Part shown: positions 33,347-40,087 of the stretch, piece after piece
How the letters are laid out: each line of letters starts with the position of its first letter
Numbering within the stretch: position 1 is the stretch's first letter
DNA from: Candidatus Marinacidobacterales bacterium
GTDB lineage: Bacteria; Acidobacteriota; Vicinamibacteria; Marinacidobacterales; SMYC01
Length of the DNA: 64,000 nt
Direction: 5' to 3'
Assembly: GCA_965224085.1 (NCBI GenBank)
Contig: CBDCYI010000005.1
Location: forward strand, 1,728,001 to 1,792,000
Notes under the pieces: generated by a model
Database searches by the model: none
What the model was told of the DNA's origin: nothing
Seen by the model: only the letters and a program-made list of their open reading frames with translations
Position numbers and translations under genes: made by a program

Positions 33347-33475
33347 TGGAAGTACACGAAACGGCCAGGTCTTAGCTCCATCCAGCCGGCTACACTGTCC
33401 GAGTACGTCTTGAGCAAGTTCATTTTTTCCGTCGAGAGTCTCGAGCCCCTCGTTCTTCTGACGACGCTCGTCCTT

Positions 33476-34844
33476 ATGGGGGTGGCCAAGGGCGGTGCGG
33501 GGTGGAAAAAGATGTTCGGGCTCGGCAAGAAAGAAAAGAGCCCGGCTTCTGGTGCGGACCCTGCGCTCGCCGCGGGCGATTGGGAGCGGGCCGCCAAGAT
33601 ATTCGAAAAAGACGGACGTTATCGTGATGCGGCCAAGCTTTATCGAGGCAAGGGGCAGAACCACGAAGCAGCGCGTCTTCTCGTGCGCGCTGGAGCGCTT
33701 ACGGAAGCAGCGTCCATCTTCGAGCGGGTCGGACATTATCAAAAGGCTGCGGAGGTGTGCGCGCAGTCCGGGGACAACAAAAGAGCGGGCGAGAACTACC
33801 GGCACTACCTCGAAGACCGGTTCGGCACCCTCGCCCTCGCGCGCTCTCCGGCGGACCATGCGGAGTTCACGAAATATTGCCGGCTTGCCGGGCAAGCCTT
33901 CGAGCGCGCCGGACTTCTCGATCAAGCTGCGGAAGTGCTCGAGCGTGGCGAGCAGTGGGAGGATGCGGCTGCGCTGTTCCTCAAGCTCAATCGTCACGTG
34001 AAAGCCGCCGATCTCTATGAGCGTGCCGGAGCGGTGGACCACGCTGCCGACGCCTACGCGCAAGCGGGCGACCGTGTGCGCGCCGCGCAAATGCGAGGCG
34101 AGCATCTTTACAAGCAAGATCAGAAAAACGAGGCGGCGGTGCAGTTTCTCCTCGGTGGCGATCCGCTTCGAGCTGCCGAAGTCTACGAAGAAGCGGGAAA
34201 TTATCTCGACTCCGCACGCTGCTACGAGCATTGCGGCGCCCACCGTCAGGCCGCCGAGGCCTATGAGCGCGTGGAGCAATTCGGCCGCGCGGCGGAAATG
34301 TACGGACGGAGCCAGGACTATAAGAAAGCCGCGGCGCTCTACGAGAAGGCCGAAGACTGGGGCCAGGCGGCGCGGATGTTCGCCGAGTCAGGCGACTATT
34401 ATCGCGCCGCGAAGAACGCGCGCAAAGAGGGACTCACCGAGTTCGCCATCGACTGCCTCCAGAAGATCGAGACAACGAACCCCAATTATCAAGAATCCCT
34501 CGTCGAGCTCGGGCAGAGTTTCATGGAGCGGGATCTGCCGGGTGTCGCCGTGGAGAAGTTGAAGAAGGCGCTTCACGATCAGCCACTCGCGGCCAAGAAT
34601 CTCGACATCTATTACACGCTCGCGGTCGCTTCCGAGCAGATGGGTAGCTACGAAAAAGCTGTGGAGATCCTCAAGCAGATCGTCGCGGAAAACTACAGCT
34701 ATCGGGACGCCGTCGGGCGGCTCCAGGAGCTCCAGAAGAAGCCGGCGAAAGGGGCCACCGAGCCGTCACGCCATCAAGCCGCCAAAGAAGAGCTCGGTGG
34801 CAAGCGCTATGAGTTCATTGAGAAACTCGGCGCCGGCGGGATGG
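33476..34844 (+). pseudogene. 5' part of a TPR/SNAP-repeat Ser/Thr protein kinase gene, interrupted by IS110
   Basis: Repeats of AAxxYExAG; ends RYEFIEKLGAGGM then runs into IS sequence; start could be 33410, 33476 or 33512. Confidence 0.9.
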
Positions 34845-34859
34845 ACTCCCCACGCCGGA

Positions 34860-36155
34860 TCAAGAGAAAACCTTCTTCGTAGGAATCATCGTCGATTCGC
34901 TTTTTGTTGTGGACGACCGCGAGGGGTCGTAAAGAGTTCTTTGTCGAAGCATCGCCATGGCGATGGGTAGAATGCGGTCCATGACGCCTCTGAGAGCTCT
35001 GGCATGGCTGTGGCCCGCGTCGCGAAGCCGATCGTAGTGCTTTTTAAAGTGTGGGTCGCGAAGCACGGCAGTGCTGGCCCAATGATGGAGAGCGTTATTG
35101 AGGGGCAAAGAGCGAGCTCTCCTCATCAGGATAGTTGGTCGCAACTGACCGCGCTTGCCGCTTTTTTTCGTGACGGGTGCGATGCCGCTGAGAGTCCTGA
35201 AGGCTTTGAGATTTCGTAGCCGAATGGGGTCGTGGGCATAGCAGAGCACGGAGGCGAGCACGTAAGCACCGACGCCGGGCAAAGAGGCAAGAATGGCAGC
35301 GTCGGAGCACTGCTTGTCGTTTAGTGCTTGCAAGCGCTTGAACCACTTCTCGAGATGCTGGTCGGAGGCACGACGATGTTGTCGAACGAGGAGCAACTGC
35401 TGAAGGAGCAGTTCGAGATGCTCAGAAGTAGCTTTGGTGGTTGCATGCGCGACTCGGAGTGGTTTTTGATTGAGGGTATCGAGGATCTGCTCGGGTTTTA
35501 CGCGTCGGATGCGGTGTTTTTTAACGAGCGTCTCGATGGTGTGGCGGCTAAGAGAGTTGGGGCTGGATTCGAAGAAGAGTTTTAGGAGCTCGCAGAAAAA
35601 CGCGTCGAGAGCCTTATTCTTTGGCGCGAGCGAGACGAGGTGAGGCCAACAGCGAGTAAGGAGTTCTCGGATCTGCGAGCTGAGGGCAACGTGGTTTTTG
35701 ACAAGTTGGTCGCGGGTGCTCAACAGCCCGCGCATAGCAAGGATCTCCGGAGGTGGAAGTTGCAAGCGCTGAAAGCGGTGACCGTCGGTTCTGAGCGAAT
35801 CGGCGAGAACGAAGGCGTCGCGCCGATCATCCTTGGCGCCGCTCATAGAATGCCGGTCGCGGAAACGGTCGACCTGCTTGGGATTGATGGAGAAAATGGC
35901 GATGGCGTTGTCAAGAAAGAGCTCGACGACGGCTCCATGAGGCTTTTCGATCGCCACTGCGATGCGCTCGGTGTCTTGCGTGGTCAGTTCCAGAAGCCAG
36001 CCGATCGTTTCTGAAAGTCCTTCGCGGCTATGAGGAAAGCCGCGCTCCCCCATAAATTGTCCCCTGGTATCGACCACGCTGGCCAAGTGAAGCCATTGGC
36101 CCAGGTCGACACCGACGAAGAAGTCGTAGTCGAGCTGATTCCTGGAAGAACTCAT
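34860..36155 (-). CDS. IS110-family transposase / bridge recombinase
   Basis: DEDD residues in GVDLG, AIEKP, KDDRRDA; C-domain SLPGVG, SGIAPVTKKSGK, HARALR. Confidence 0.96.
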   Translation of the reverse strand: MSSSRNQLDYDFFVGVDLGQWLHLASVVDTRGQFMGERGFPHSREGLSETIGWLLELTTQDTERIAVAIEKPHGAVVELFLDNAIAIFSINPKQVDRFRDRHSMSGAKDDRRDAFVLADSLRTDGHRFQRLQLPPPEILAMRGLLSTRDQLVKNHVALSSQIRELLTRCWPHLVSLAPKNKALDAFFCELLKLFFESSPNSLSRHTIETLVKKHRIRRVKPEQILDTLNQKPLRVAHATTKATSEHLELLLQQLLLVRQHRRASDQHLEKWFKRLQALNDKQCSDAAILASLPGVGAYVLASVLCYAHDPIRLRNLKAFRTLSGIAPVTKKSGKRGQLRPTILMRRARSLPLNNALHHWASTAVLRDPHFKKHYDRLRDAGHSHARALRGVMDRILPIAMAMLRQRTLYDPSRSSTTKSESTMIPTKKVFS

Positions 36156-36168
36156 TGCCGTCAGCGCA

Positions 36169-36303
36169 TGTGATGTTTCATCGGCCCCTGTACCGGCGCT
36201 CGAAGCGCAACTCCCCATTGGATGTCCATCACAAGAAAATTGCCGGCACGCGTGTCCATACCGGGCGCTCGGAGCGCAGGGCGAAGTATGGCGTTGCCGG
36301 CAA
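36169..36303 (-). ncRNA. Bridge RNA (target-binding loop 36240-36303, donor-binding loop 36169-36233); exact ends unknown
   Basis: Two stem/internal-loop modules, each with a GCGC-U(C/U)CGA-GCGC hairpin, flanked by guides matching the insertion site and the circle junction. Confidence 0.88.
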
Positions 36304-36350
36304 GCTGCTGACGAAATCGAAAATAGTTCAAGCTCATCGTGAGATTTGCT

Positions 36351-36767
36351 CTACCACTGCAATCGAAGCTGGCGCGCGATGCCACCAGCTCGTGCTGGTT
36401 TTTTTCTCGGTTGTTTCGGGCGAAGCACGTCTGCGAGTTTTTCTCGAAGGTAGCGAACATAAGGCGGGTCTAGATATTCACTTCGCACTTCCTCGAGCAC
36501 AGGTGAAAAATAGCGAAGGGAGCGAATGGGTTGTAGTGGCTCCTCATGCTCTTGTAGCTCCCGACGAGCGCAACCCAGAAGTAGGGCGCACTCGAATTCG
36601 TATAACGGGACGCCCTGGCGGTAGAGTCGCGTCGCCATGAAGCGATCGTCGCGCCGTGGTCGCTCAGGTGTGTTCGGAATAGAAACATAGATATCCAAAA
36701 CCGCCCGGACATAATCGTTTTCTGTTAGAGCGTCGCTCGTGAGCGGTTTATCACTGAGCTTCGACAT
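36351..36767 (-). CDS. IS-borne accessory hypothetical protein, 138 aa
   Basis: Strong GGAGGT RBS (36772-36780); YVRAVLDIY..DDRFMATRLYRQGVP..PIRSLRYFSPVLEEV. Confidence 0.75.
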   Translation of the reverse strand: MSKLSDKPLTSDALTENDYVRAVLDIYVSIPNTPERPRRDDRFMATRLYRQGVPLYEFECALLLGCARRELQEHEEPLQPIRSLRYFSPVLEEVRSEYLDPPYVRYLREKLADVLRPKQPRKKPARAGGIARQLRLQW

Positions 36768-37156
36768 CCATCCACCTCCCGCGTCCGCCGCAGATACAGC
36801 ATTTGGCATATCCGAAACTGTCAAGCTTCGTTTTCATTGAAAGAACCATCGAGCTCCGTGACCGGATCTGTTCTCTGATTCCTACATTGCCCGAGTTACC
36901 GACGTGAATGGAACCATGATCCGTTACTTTTTCTTGGTGTCGTCGATACTCACGTTGCCGGTCCGCACAATCTCGACTGTCCTTCGACACTTTCTCGATC
37001 TTTGCGGTTGTAGCCGCGACACTTTATTAGGCCGGCATGATAAGAGCACGCTTTACCGCAGTAGCAGTGTCCACGGTCACAGCTCTTGCAGATGTAGAAG
37101 GCCTCTGAACAGTTACGACAAAAACGCTGGTACACAACGACTGGTTTGGTGGCCAT
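36751..37156 (-). CDS. IS-borne Cys-rich (putative Zn-binding) protein, ~134 aa, with apparent +1 frameshift near 36976
   Basis: CRNC..CKSCDRGHCYCGKAC then, in the next frame, RDCADRQREYRRHQEKVTDHGS..CCICG; overlaps the next ORF's start. Confidence 0.65.
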
Positions 37157-37436
37157 TTGAGACTCAGCAAGCGCTGGACTATGGCCGCCCGTCTGTGAGA
37201 GGCTAGCTTCCACCTGTACTGGAGCGCCTCCTTCGGGGGGCCATCCAAACATCAGAGCCCCGGTCGTTTCTGGCGGCCGGGGCTCGCTATTGTTGCACAG
37301 CAGGCTCACCCTTATCTCGCCGGGGCGAGACGATCTGACTGCCTCGCGCCTACGGCGCGAGATGATGCCTTGTGCATACACATTTTGGTTCGACCTTCCG
37401 CGTAGCTCACGCTTTCGCTGTTCTGACGCTTCCGCA

Positions 37437-37442
37437 AGCGTA
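37437..37442 (-). promoter_or_regulatory. -10 half (TACGCT) of the circle-junction promoter; the -35 TTGATC is at 34858-34863
   Basis: Joined ends read TTGATC-17 nt-TACGCT on the minus strand. Confidence 0.7.
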
Positions 37443-37445
37443 CAG

Positions 37446-38183
37446 GGCGTCGTCTATCGCGCCAAAGACACGCGGCTCAATCGCATCGTGGCCTACAAGA
37501 TGCTCATGGAGCAGTTCATGGAGGTCAAAGAGGTCCGGGAGCGCTTCTTGCGCGAAGCACAATCGGCAGCGCAGCTCAATCATCCGAATATCGTCACGGT
37601 GTTCGACGTGGACGTCGACTCGGAGCAGAACCGGCTCTTCATCGCTATGGAGTTCGTCGCGGGTGAAAGCTATTTCGACATCCTTCAGCGTGAGACGAGA
37701 CTCTCGATCCAGCAGACCGTTCAGTTCATCGGAGGCGTTCTCAAAGCGCTCGCCCACGCGCATCGCCACGGCGTCCTCCACCGCGATATCAAGCCTTCGA
37801 ACGTGATGCTCTCGAAACAGCGCGTCGTCAAGATCATGGATTTCGGCCTCGCCAAGATACTTCGAGACGCGAAAGCGCAGGGCAGTGAGAAGGCGAGCGG
37901 GACGCCGCTCTACATGTCTCCAGAGCAGATTCTCGGCAAGGCACTCGACTTCCGCACGGATATCTACGCCTTTGGAGGGACCGTGTATCACCTCCTCGCG
38001 GGCGAGCCACCTTTCGTTGATGGCGAAGTGCTCTACCATCACGTGCACACACCCGCGCGCTCGCTGAAAGACTTGCGGCCGGACGTTCCGAAGGTGCTCT
38101 GCAGCATCGTTATGGCTTGTCTCAACAAGGAGCCCGCCGACCGGCCGACCTCCGACCAAATCCTGAAAATGTTGAAGAAGTAG
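37446..38183 (+). pseudogene. 3' part of the interrupted Hanks-type Ser/Thr kinase
   Basis: GVVYRAKD, VAYK, HRDIKPSN, DFG, GTPLYMSPE, DIYAFG. Confidence 0.95.
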
Positions 38184-38188
38184 TCACT

Positions 38189-38285
38189 ATTCAGCATCCA
38201 GCATTCACGAGCTCTCAGGATTGGCGATTTCGTGCCCGTAGTCCTGAGAGTTCCTGAATGCTCATTACTGAAAGCTGAATGCTGG
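38189..38285. repeat. Long imperfect inverted repeat flanked by 7-mer CAGCATT/AATGCTG-type units (REP-like or terminator)
   Basis: 38200-38222 pairs with 38240-38262 (20/23). Confidence 0.7.
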
Positions 38286-38314
38286 TTCCGCGCTATAATG
38301 CTCGGCCGCACGAC

Positions 38315-40087
38315 ATGAGCCGACTCTCGGACATCACGCACCGCATTCAGGAGCGTGTCCGCGGGTCGATGGCGCAAAACGAGAACCAGGTTTTCATGGG
38401 GCTCACGTTCGTCATCGGCGCGGCCGTGGGACTCGTAATCGTCGCTTTCATTGTCGTCACCGATAGTCTCGAAGCGTGGCTCTATGCCGAGGGCACCGCG
38501 CGGTGGCGTCGTCTCGTGACGCCGATCGCGGCGACGCTCTTTGTGGGCTACCTTCTGTATCGATTTTTTCCCGACGCGCGCGGGAGCGGTGTCCCGCAGA
38601 CGAAAGCGGCCATGTTCGCGCGGCGCGGGCTCATCCCGGGGCGAACGGTGGTAGGCAAGTTCATCGCCTCGTCGGTGACTCTCGCGAGCGGAATCGCTCT
38701 CGGCCGTGAGGGCCCTTCGGTACAGATGGGCGCGGGACTCGCTTCGAGTATCGGACGCGGGCTCGGGCTGAGCGGCGACAAGCTTCAAATGCTCCTCCCC
38801 GTCGGCGCGGCCGCCGCGCTCGCCGCCGCCTTCAATACGCCTCTCGCCGCGATTCTCTTCGCGCTCGAAGAGATCATGGGGAACTTGCACGCGCCGATTC
38901 TAGGCTCGGTCGTCGTCAGCGTCTTTACGTCGCTCTTCGTGATGCGCCTCTTGCTCGGAAACGAGCCTCTTTTTCACGTTCCCGCATACGAAACGGTGCA
39001 CCCGGCCGAGTTCATCGTTTACGCGCTTTTGGGTATCGTGGGCGGCCTCGTCTCCGTTTTCTTCGTCAAGCTCATGCTGCGCATGCGCGAGAAGTTCTTG
39101 AGCATGCCGCGCAGAACGCGCTGGCTGCATCCGGCCGCCGGCGGCGTGGTCGTGGGCGTTCTCGCGTTCACTCTCCCTGGAATTTTTCGTTTTGGACATC
39201 ACACCGTAGGCGAGGCGCTCAACGGCTCGCTCCCGCCTTCGCAGATGGTCATTCTTCTCGTGCTCAGCGTCTTCGCGACCGCCGTGTGCTACGCCTCGGG
39301 AAATGCGGGAGGCATTTTCGGGCCGAGTCTTTTCATGGGTGCTATGGTCGGTGGCAGTCTCGGGAGCATTGCGCAAGCTTATTTTCCCGATATGACCGCG
39401 AGCCCTGGCGCCTATGCGCTCGTCGGGATGGGGACGGCTTTCGCCGGGATCTTGCGTGTGCCGATGGTCTCCGTGATCATGATCTTCGAGCTCACGCACG
39501 ACTACGCCATCGTCGTGCCACTCATGATCTCGAACCTCATCAGCTTTTTCGTTTCGTACAAGTTTCAGAAGACGCCGCTTTACGAAGCACTCGCGCTTCA
39601 AGAAGGCATCCACCTTCCGACCTCAGAAAGTGAGAAGCGCCACCTCCAGGTGCGGCTCGCCATGCGTCCGCCCCACGAGACTTTTTCGTCGGACATGACG
39701 GTTGCGGATTGTATCGAGCGAGTCGGCCATAGCAGCATGCGCGCGTGGCCCGTCACCGACAAGAACGGGGTATGGGGTGTGGTGTCTCTCGAGCAGCTCG
39801 AAAAAGCCCACGACGAGGATCGGGGCGACGCCAAAGTCGGTGACCTTCTGGACTCTCGCGCGTTTCCTCATTTGCACGCCGACCATTCGCTCGACCTCGC
39901 ACTCGAGCGCATGGGCAAAGAGGGCTACGATCTCTTGCCCGTGGTGAGTCGAGCCAACGTTCACGAGATGGAAGGGGTTTGCTCGCTTCTCGATGTGCTC
40001 CGCGCGTTCGGCGTTCATGGACGACCGCCGGGTGCGCCTCCCGACGCCAACGACGTCGACGTCGACGTCGGTGAAGGCCGCTCGTGA
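38315..40087 (+). CDS. ClC chloride channel / H+:Cl- antiporter with CBS pair
   Basis: GSGVP, GREGP, AAFNTP, GIFGP; C-terminal CBS domains; TATAAT at 38294. Confidence 0.95.

Follow-up and report, generated by a model that had tools for sequence, protein, structure and literature searches.

Insertion sequences of the IS110 and IS1111 groups are known to target repeats, for example repetitive extragenic palindromic (REP) elements, integron attC sites, and transposon ends. According to PMC11208160, IS621 is directed by a bridge RNA whose left target guide (LTG) has the sense of the left target plus core and whose right target guide (RTG) is complementary to the core plus right target, the latter pairing over 4 nt in the wild type; a junction promoter is also described there for IS110 elements. 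For IS1111/seekRNA elements (ISEc11, IS4321/IS5075), PMC11187229 gives a DEDD transposase together with an RNA-guided choice of a specific repeated target. Here, we analyzed a 64,000-nt stretch of a Candidatus Marinacidobacterales bacterium genome (GCA_965224085.1, contig CBDCYI010000005.1, positions 1,728,001–1,792,000; hereafter the window) and describe a 2602-bp IS110-family element with a bridge RNA whose target-binding loop is, very probably, aimed at the stretch of Hanks-type Ser/Thr kinase genes that encodes the glycine-rich (Gly) loop, through an IS621-like mechanism.

The element shares with IS621 and ISCro4 the same two Pfam domains, with acidic and Ser motifs that probably align, and an RNA that lies 5′ of the recombinase gene and carries a target loop and a donor loop. 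With IS621, it further shares scarless insertion at a 2-nt core, –35-like and –10-like hexamers split between the right and left ends, and the orientation of LTG and RTG relative to the target. It differs in its core (CC, where IS621 has CT), in the length of RTG pairing (7 nt as opposed to four in wild-type IS621), in its target (the coding motif of a gene family, rather than a REP element), in a left end of 0.8–1.3 kb that holds one or two open reading frames (ORFs)—such that the RNA abuts the recombinase start and not the element end as in IS621—and in its low protein similarity to IS621/ISCro4 (E about 1e-7). IS1111-group elements, by contrast, encode their RNA downstream of the gene and possess subterminal inverted repeats; in the present element, the RNA is upstream and the transposase stop codon lies 13 nt from the element end.

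Group I and group II introns, as well as inteins, home into conserved coding motifs, yet they splice out and the gene stays working. What the element has in common with them is a landing site that owes its conservation to the conserved protein motif it encodes; unlike them, it disrupts the gene, relies on an RNA-guided recombinase, and multiplies across the paralogues of a single genome.

Results

An IS110-family element interrupts a kinase gene

The window contains a plus-strand gene for a kinase with tetratricopeptide (TPR) repeats that is split between GAGGM and GVVYRAKD by an element whose genes lie on the minus strand. The principal features are as follows.

33410–34844, plus strand: 5′ part of the interrupted gene, a TPR-repeat region (TPR family matches) followed by the first part of the kinase domain, which closes with ...RYEFIEKLGAGGM
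34845–37446, minus strand: IS110-family element, delimited by its junctions, by other copies, and by empty-site contigs joining 34842 to 37445
34860–36155, minus strand: transposase (recombinase), 431 aa, ATG at 36155, with matches to PF01548, PF02371, NF033542, and IS621 chain 8wt6
36162–36310, minus strand: bridge RNA core, ~149 nt, two loops within a closing stem CAGC (36310–36307)/GCUG (36165–36162), from fold and alignment
36240–36303, minus strand: target-binding loop, consisting of outer stem, left guide, hairpin, and right guide, from sequence and pair counts
36279–36289, minus strand: LTG AUACUUCGCCC, with the sense of the kinase-antisense strand and pairing with GGGCGAAGTAT of the kinase-sense strand
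36256–36263, minus strand: RTG CGGUAUGG, effective part GGUAUGG, with the sense of the kinase strand GGNATGG
36170–36234, minus strand: donor-binding loop with outer stem UGUGAUG/CAUCACA, two guides, and a hairpin, from guide matches to the element ends and the fold
37447–38183, plus strand: remaining 3′ portion of the split kinase gene, running from GVVYRAKDTRLNRIVAYK... as far as its stop codon (PF00069, 4.8e-53, profile positions 13–259)

To the left of the element, the plus-strand gene ends ...GKRYEFIEKLGAGGM (...KLGAGGM), with ATGG at 34841–34844 contributing the GG core, and foreign sequence follows; the 3′ part resumes with GVVYRAKDTRLNR..., its first letters being GCG at 37447. With a Pkinase domain and a glycine-rich loop that reads GAGGM|GVVY across the junction, the target is a Hanks-type Ser/Thr kinase gene. 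Its layout—a long N-terminal TPR-repeat region and a C-terminal kinase domain—is unusual. The junctions read ...GGGATGG|ACTCCCCACG... and ...GCGTACAGG|GCGTCG..., each with a single GG, and the rebuilt empty site is CGGGATGG|GCGTCGTCT. Neither terminal inverted repeats at these two element ends nor a target duplication were seen. The real occupied site reads GGGATGGGCGTCGT.

An earlier note on this DNA had implied a compact insertion sequence; the insertion in fact measures 2602 bp, with the GG/CC core counted once. Read from the far end, its minus strand carries a 14-bp hairpin, accessory ORF1, accessory ORF2, the bridge RNA, and the transposase, with the RNA ~1.15 kb from that end and directly upstream of the transposase start (36155). 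In sequencing run X1, which is DNA-like and may be a sample of the source genome, two contigs join 34842 to 37445 with a 2-nt overlap and skip 2602 nt; their depth was ~10, versus 90–240 on the element. The kinase gene thus exists uninterrupted and scar-free in the population and the site is polymorphic, the empty allele being either ancestral or the product of precise excision.

The transposase carries DEDD_Tnp_IS110 (PF01548, 5.7e-30) followed by Transposase_20 (PF02371, 2.9e-11), both above gathering scores, and reaches 161.8 bits against the equivalog NF033542, 'IS110 family RNA-guided transposase' (cut-off 140). Among solved chains, a PDB sequence search matched it to IS621 (8wt6; E 4.3e-7) and ISCro4 (1.6e-6), the C-terminal portion of the alignment being significant and the N-terminal pairwise alignment weak when taken alone (i-Evalue 120). 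GVDLG (15), IEKP (69), KDDRRDA (108), and KKSGKR (330) line up with the acidic and Ser motifs of IS621/ISCro4 and are the putative catalytic D-E-D-D and Ser motifs. By the sequence tests applied, the element is a member of the IS110 group. A longer transposase ORF, with its start at 36218, would overlap the donor loop.

The bridge RNA matches both the kinase site and the element ends

The target loop reads UUGCCGGCA-ACGCC-AUACUUCGCCC-U-GCGC-UCCGA-GCGC-C-CGGUAUGG-ACACGCG-UGCCGGCAA on the minus strand (36303–36240), its outer stem being formed by UUGCCGGCA (36303–36295) and UGCCGGCAA (36248–36240). This stem, the GCGC-UCCGA-GCGC hairpin, and the two guides had been proposed in the earlier note, with coordinates that proved exact; a recount by hand also returned the same agreement with the rebuilt site, 8/11 for LTG (of which ~9 nt are effective) and 7/8 for RTG.

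The donor loop, UGUGAUG-GACAUCCAA-UGGGGAGU-U-GCGC-UUCGA-GCGC-CGGUACAGG-GGCCGAUGAAA-CAUCACA (36234–36170), comprises a left guide UGGGGAGU (36217–36210), a hairpin GCGCUUCGAGCGC (36208–36196), and a right guide CGGUACAGG (36195–36187). Its left guide, (A/G)UGGGGAGU, reproduces the bases with which the right end finishes (...GTGGGGAGT|CC), and GUACAGG of the right guide is the complement of CCTGTAC at the start of the left end (CC|TGTACGC), amounting to matches of 8–9 nt and 7 nt, respectively. This match to the element ends independently identifies the RNA as a bridge RNA.

When folded as a single sequence, both loops—each with its GCGC hairpin—are placed inside the closing stem CAGC/GCUG, giving the IS621-type layout of two internal loops in one RNA, each made up of two guides around a hairpin. 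In an alignment of 42 distinct RNAs (55 loci less two cut by contig ends, ten exact duplicates, and the divergent L117), 31 pairs in five helices were paired in 99.1% of cells and eight of them showed compensatory changes; one helix arm lies inside the search pattern and is invariant by construction. None of 500 shuffled controls reached any of five structure measures, and moving the pairing partner by 1–3 columns left pairing at 15–47%. The structure is more than a chance fold: it is kept in 42 distinct relatives, and the target it predicts recurs at dozens of independent junctions.

Insertions cluster at Gly-loop codons in the source genome and in metagenomes

The source genome (6.87 Mb, 12 contigs) contains 15 stretches that match the element and ten copies of the donor-loop pattern. 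Two subfamilies can be told apart, ~85% identical to each other over the element and with different guides: subfamily A (the window copy, L002, and L007) with LTG AUACUUCGCCC and RTG CCGGUAUGG, and subfamily B (L003–L006, L008, L010, and L011) with LTG AUACGUCGCCC and RTG CAGGAAUGG. Six of eleven distinct left junctions lie at GxGGM codons of different kinases (GAGGM, GVGGM, GKGGM, GQCGM, GAGGM, and GSGGM), four of eight right junctions at the Gly-loop codons G(V/E/D)VY, and ATGG beside the crossover is invariant at all eleven left junctions. A tblastn search with the kinase domain found kinase bodies beside L001, L003, L004, and L007. While the element copies are 85–100% identical, their flanks differ strongly in protein and DNA (e.g., RYEFIEKLGAGGM, PYEILSPVGKGGM, and HCKILEKIGQCGM), arguing that the insertions were independent.

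Several copies in this genome (L002, L007, and L008–L014) are truncated or adjoin inverted fragments. L002 (C11:764560–766953) breaks off at element position ~2340, where it meets an inverted 35-nt piece of the right end that has its own ..ACGGAATGG flank. L007 terminates inside the stop codon of ORF2, ~40 nt upstream of the bridge RNA, and adjoins an inverted fragment of a kinase. Such arrangements look like rearrangements between copies. Separately, other Pkinase matches in the genome (C11:654476 and C4:438341) likewise begin at profile position 13, and these might represent additional sites of old insertions or excisions.

Relatives were sought in one genome per GTDB species and in metagenomes. 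Among 60 genomic loci with transposase relatives, a kinase fragment adjoins only L016 (61% amino acid identity) and L042 (85%), and none was found beside the 58 others. The L016 junction reads GAGGM|GEVYRARD; at L042, the right flank is GEVYRARD. The metagenome set comprised 51 short contigs chosen by an exact 22-base donor-loop pattern. Where enough flank was present, 26 of 28 distinct left junctions were GxGGM kinase codons, and 29 of 30 distinct right junctions were GxV(Y/F/W), the latter counts coming from a 13-mer left-end search (a looser 9-mer search gave false internal positions; the true right end of L097 gives PYEILSPLGAGGM). The thirtieth, at L094, is a kinase in which an in-frame stop stands in place of the Tyr codon (GEV*RACDERLNR), suggesting that the disrupted gene decayed once the element had inserted. 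The flanking kinases differ in sequence from contig to contig, so that the insertions are independent events. Within a genome or sample, copies are related to one another. The clustering at GGM|GxVY that the earlier note had anticipated is thus present in the source genome, at L016 and L042, and in the metagenomes on both sides of the element.

L117 and L136, which account for the two exceptions among left junctions, represent a compact and divergent lineage with a transposase that is 40% identical, a left end ~170 nt from the donor loop, and no accessory ORFs; they share the donor loop, have another target loop, and occupy non-kinase sites. L117 sits in ...CATTTGC CC TTTCCCTC..., fitting its own guides (UUUUGCCC.. 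and AGGAAAGG), and constitutes a natural control. At L136, the right end abuts ~12 nt that repeat its own left-end start, and this flank looks like a donor site. In a tree of 63 transposases (mafft and FastTree; exact duplicates and tblastn matches of <370 residues or with stops, including L016 and L042, were dropped), all 29 transposases from contigs with a kinase-type loop grouped in a single clade (support 1.0) that excluded L117 and the distant relatives. Among 401 sampled genomes of the phylum, the donor-loop pattern occurred in one, the source genome itself, and close protein relatives occurred in two of 55 genomes of the order; neither count is proof of absence elsewhere.

Guides covary with their targets and vary in phase with codons

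We compared each element's guides with its own flanks, against 20000 shuffled pairings. For the right half (LTG), 343 matches were counted as compared to 326.2±4.4 in shuffled pairings, none of which was as high (0/20000); for the left half (RTG), there were 239 against 230.7±3.5, a value reached by 290 of 20000. Guides therefore covary with targets, as the earlier note had expected, and the guides of L117 and L136 fit the other site of their own lineage. Across 40 and 36 junctions, typical matches were 8–11 of 11 and 6–8 of 9, respectively. Within the 9-nt RTG window, the first two letters seldom match (the first never does), and the last two LTG letters often miss, which leaves an effective site of GGNATGG|GNGANGT (5 + 2 core + 7). 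This 14-mer encodes G-M-G-E-V of the glycine-rich loop.

Among the 42 distinct RNAs, the guide letters that face codon positions 1 and 2 of Gly-Met-Gly-Glu-Val are invariant in 41–42, whereas the four letters that face third codon positions have 3–4 alleles each. Guide variation thus follows the 3-nt period of the coding target.

The source genome holds 46 Pkinase matches and 35 intact Gly-loop motifs. When its 13.7 million positions were scanned with guides A and B—a check that had been suggested in the earlier note—the sole perfect 14-nt match was a kinase Gly loop, as were three of the eleven sites with at most one mismatch.

Candidate promoter and expression

Two hexamers near the element ends, read from the sequence, resemble promoter boxes.

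34858–34863, minus strand: TTGATC, –35-like hexamer in the right end
37437–37442, minus strand: TACGCT, –10-like hexamer just inside the left end

TTGA(C/T)N lies 15 nt before the element end (core counted) in all 28 distinct right ends, and TAC(G/T)CT follows the core at a distance of 2 nt in each of the 28 distinct left ends. Joined in a circle, the ends would form a promoter with a 17-nt spacer across the core, and transcription from it would cross ORF1 (and ORF2) before reaching the bridge RNA. Runs X18 and X20 cover 36252–36445, though both may be DNA. The run labels name marine sediment, which only suggests the habitat.

Accessory ORFs in a long left end

Upstream of the bridge RNA, three further features occupy the left part of the element.

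36351–36767, minus strand: accessory ORF2, 138 aa, ...DYVRAVLDIYVSIPNTPERPRRDDR...PIRSLRYF..., conserved, third-position bias 16/6/24
36751–37156, minus strand: accessory ORF1, Cys-rich, with eight invariant Cys; one frameshift in the window copy (subfamily A)
37255–37285: 14-bp GC-rich hairpin within the leader that separates the left end from ORF1, likewise present in L042

ORF1 was found in all kinase-type elements with a recovered left end. Twelve aligned copies are 123–137 aa long and 34–57% identical to the first, with the motifs KVTDH and CxxCGRxG; pairs of copies lack third-position bias (18/17/18), so constraint appears weak apart from the invariant Cys. In the window copy, ORF1 runs from 37156 to 36950 and its remainder continues in the +1 frame to 36751, placing the frameshift in the region ~36950–36990; in subfamily B, ORF1 is intact. 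Subfamily A has spread despite its broken ORF1—three ~100% identical copies sit at different kinase sites—and ORF1 is hence either dispensable or supplied in trans by subfamily B. A PDB sequence search paired ORF1 with the PRDM9 zinc-finger (1.5e-6); we set this match aside as weak and probably Cys-driven.

ORF2 is restricted to a long class of elements (1100–1280 nt from the left end to the donor loop, as opposed to 716–738 nt in the short class), within which copies are 33–69% identical, and it had no PDB sequence match. Neither ORF matched a Pfam or NCBIfam family; among 5.8 billion proteins, ORF1 fell into 56 and ORF2 into 118 unnamed clusters, mostly on 1–3 kb contigs. The leader hairpin also occurs in L016, with changes on both stem sides.

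Discussion

A model for targeting, and what weighs against it

Very probably, then, the loop at 36240–36303 serves as the target-binding loop of an IS110 bridge RNA directed at kinase Gly loops. By analogy with IS621, the RNA would be made from the junction promoter or by processing of a long transcript, would bind the recombinase, and would direct recombination as in IS621. The two ends of an excised circle would join across the CC core, the donor loop would pair with the circle junction ...GTGGGGAGT CC TGTAC..., and the target loop with both strands of the ~14-bp site GGNATGG|GNGANGT (kinase-sense), whereupon the DEDD/Ser recombinase would exchange strands at the core and leave no duplication. 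Landing would always be antisense to the kinase, with the break between GxGGM and GxVY. The Gly-loop motif is held by selection in ~40 paralogous genes per genome and so offers the element many durable landing sites.

Several observations weigh against this model. At the CC core itself, the left donor guide reads UU or UG, a mismatch. A search of 34000–38500 against Rfam at E up to 1 gave no match, which says little, since Rfam 15 may lack a bridge RNA model. A scan of the linear element's minus strand found no sigma-70 consensus promoter, and the RNA lies 0.6–1.15 kb from the end at which IS621-type RNAs start. In X19, the one clear RNA run, contigs that are 88–95% alike cover the transposase and part of ORF2 only and leave 36252–36445 uncovered, and DNA carry-over is possible even there. 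On the left side, the permutation signal is modest, and the paired sets include several copies of one genome, which are not fully independent. Between an occupied site and its guide there are 1–3 mismatched letters (three in 14 for the window copy), or five at L006, and of the 163 genomic sites with exactly two mismatches only two are kinase. Mismatch count alone thus under-predicts the kinase bias, and position-specific tolerance, selection after insertion, or both must contribute. Finally, five of eleven left junctions in the source genome are non-kinase look-alike sites with the flanks ...GGGGGAATGG, GGCGATATGG, GGGGGCATGG, GGACAAAATGG, and ACGGAATGG, beside which the kinase-domain tblastn found no kinase body; targeting evidently acts on DNA and has off-targets. 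The earlier note had named the same guides in non-kinase sequences as the finding that would speak against homing on a kinase-coding motif. Such sites exist, all of them keeping ATGG at the crossover, and homing as stated there is accordingly leaky, even as junctions, covariation, and the genome scan support it.

Some of these points would be expected if insertion were only weakly specific, for a sequence like ..ATGG|G.., and the kinase association were mostly a product of later selection, with insertions into redundant kinase genes tolerated and those elsewhere lost. Under-prediction by mismatch count (kinases hold six of eleven junctions), the 1–5 mismatches at occupied sites, and the very existence of non-kinase insertions all fit such a scenario. 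We nevertheless regard it as improbable: over 14 nt the guides read as the kinase consensus, with variation confined to letters that face third codon positions, they covary with their own flanks while a lineage with other guides sits elsewhere, and the sole perfect match in the genome is a kinase site. Selection may sharpen such a pattern but cannot create complementarity.

It is less probable again that the site is recognized by the recombinase protein or by the ORF1 or ORF2 proteins and that RNA complementarity is incidental, even though ORF1 is conserved, Cys-rich, possibly nucleic acid-binding, and present in all kinase-type elements, and the link between RNA and targeting comes from sequence rather than experiment. 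Both loops match target and donor in the exact geometry given for IS621 in PMC11208160, guide alleles track targets on a conserved scaffold, subfamily A reached different kinase sites with a frameshifted ORF1, and the short class hits the same site without ORF2. As for duplication of a single interrupted kinase gene as the source of all kinase-plus-element repeats, the kinases do form an expanded paralogous family (46 Pkinase matches); yet the flanks differ strongly while the elements are 85–100% identical, and an empty allele of the window site exists. We give this last idea almost no credence, contradicted as it is by the diversity of flanks.

Novelty and implications

We found no published report of an IS110 element aimed at kinase genes, although the group could be present, unremarked, among the target motifs that Supplementary Data 2 of PMC11208160 gives for each guide pair. 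In the text searched, the word 'kinase' is absent from PMC11187229 and 10.64898/2026.10.21.760802, and 'protein-coding' is absent from PMC11208160. While the IS110 bridge-RNA scheme is already known, the kind of target, the codon-phased guide variation, and the long left end with conserved ORFs are new. Here, a protein motif plays the part of the "repeat": because kinase function is under selection, the landing site stays intact in dozens of paralogues and from host to host, and the element cannot easily exhaust its supply of sites.

The natural set of guides and sites provides ready data on the mismatches that a bridge recombinase tolerates, with wobble positions as the clearest case, and contributes a divergent orthologue, one that has CC as its core, a right guide of 7 nt, and accessory genes of no assigned family. 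For annotation, the element explains split kinase pseudogenes in these Acidobacteriota-like genomes. As described in 10.64898/2026.10.21.760802, boundary searches were limited to 1 kb around the recombinase gene and would miss the far end of the long form.

More speculatively, the clade might be a parasite of the Hanks kinase family and perhaps also a switch, with guides that evolved with the genetic code of their target and ORF1 and ORF2 as new accessory factors. If so, guides that are free opposite wobble positions would let one RNA reach many paralogues, and ORF1 and ORF2 might control excision versus insertion, RNA processing, or expression. Since IS110 excision is scarless, each kinase could in principle be turned off and on again.

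Compact relatives

The distant relatives are ordinary compact IS110 elements from Acidobacteriaceae, Bryobacteraceae, and others (L017–L075), with 31–47% amino acid identity. Most share the donor ends (CCTGTACGC...), the donor-loop motifs (GUGGGGAGU and GGUACAGG), and the overall RNA layout of the kinase-type element; they differ in a left end only ~230–250 nt upstream of the gene, in having no accessory ORFs, and in their target loops. Among them, LTG UCCGCAACGC matches, by eye, the flank ...ACCCCGCAACGCC, a REP-like palindrome. A large compact group from Acidobacteriaceae (e.g., L025–L038) carries this same LTG and has flanks reading ...GGGGACACCCCGCAACGCC; judged by sequence, it appears to target the REP-like palindrome GGGGACACCCCGCAACGCC.

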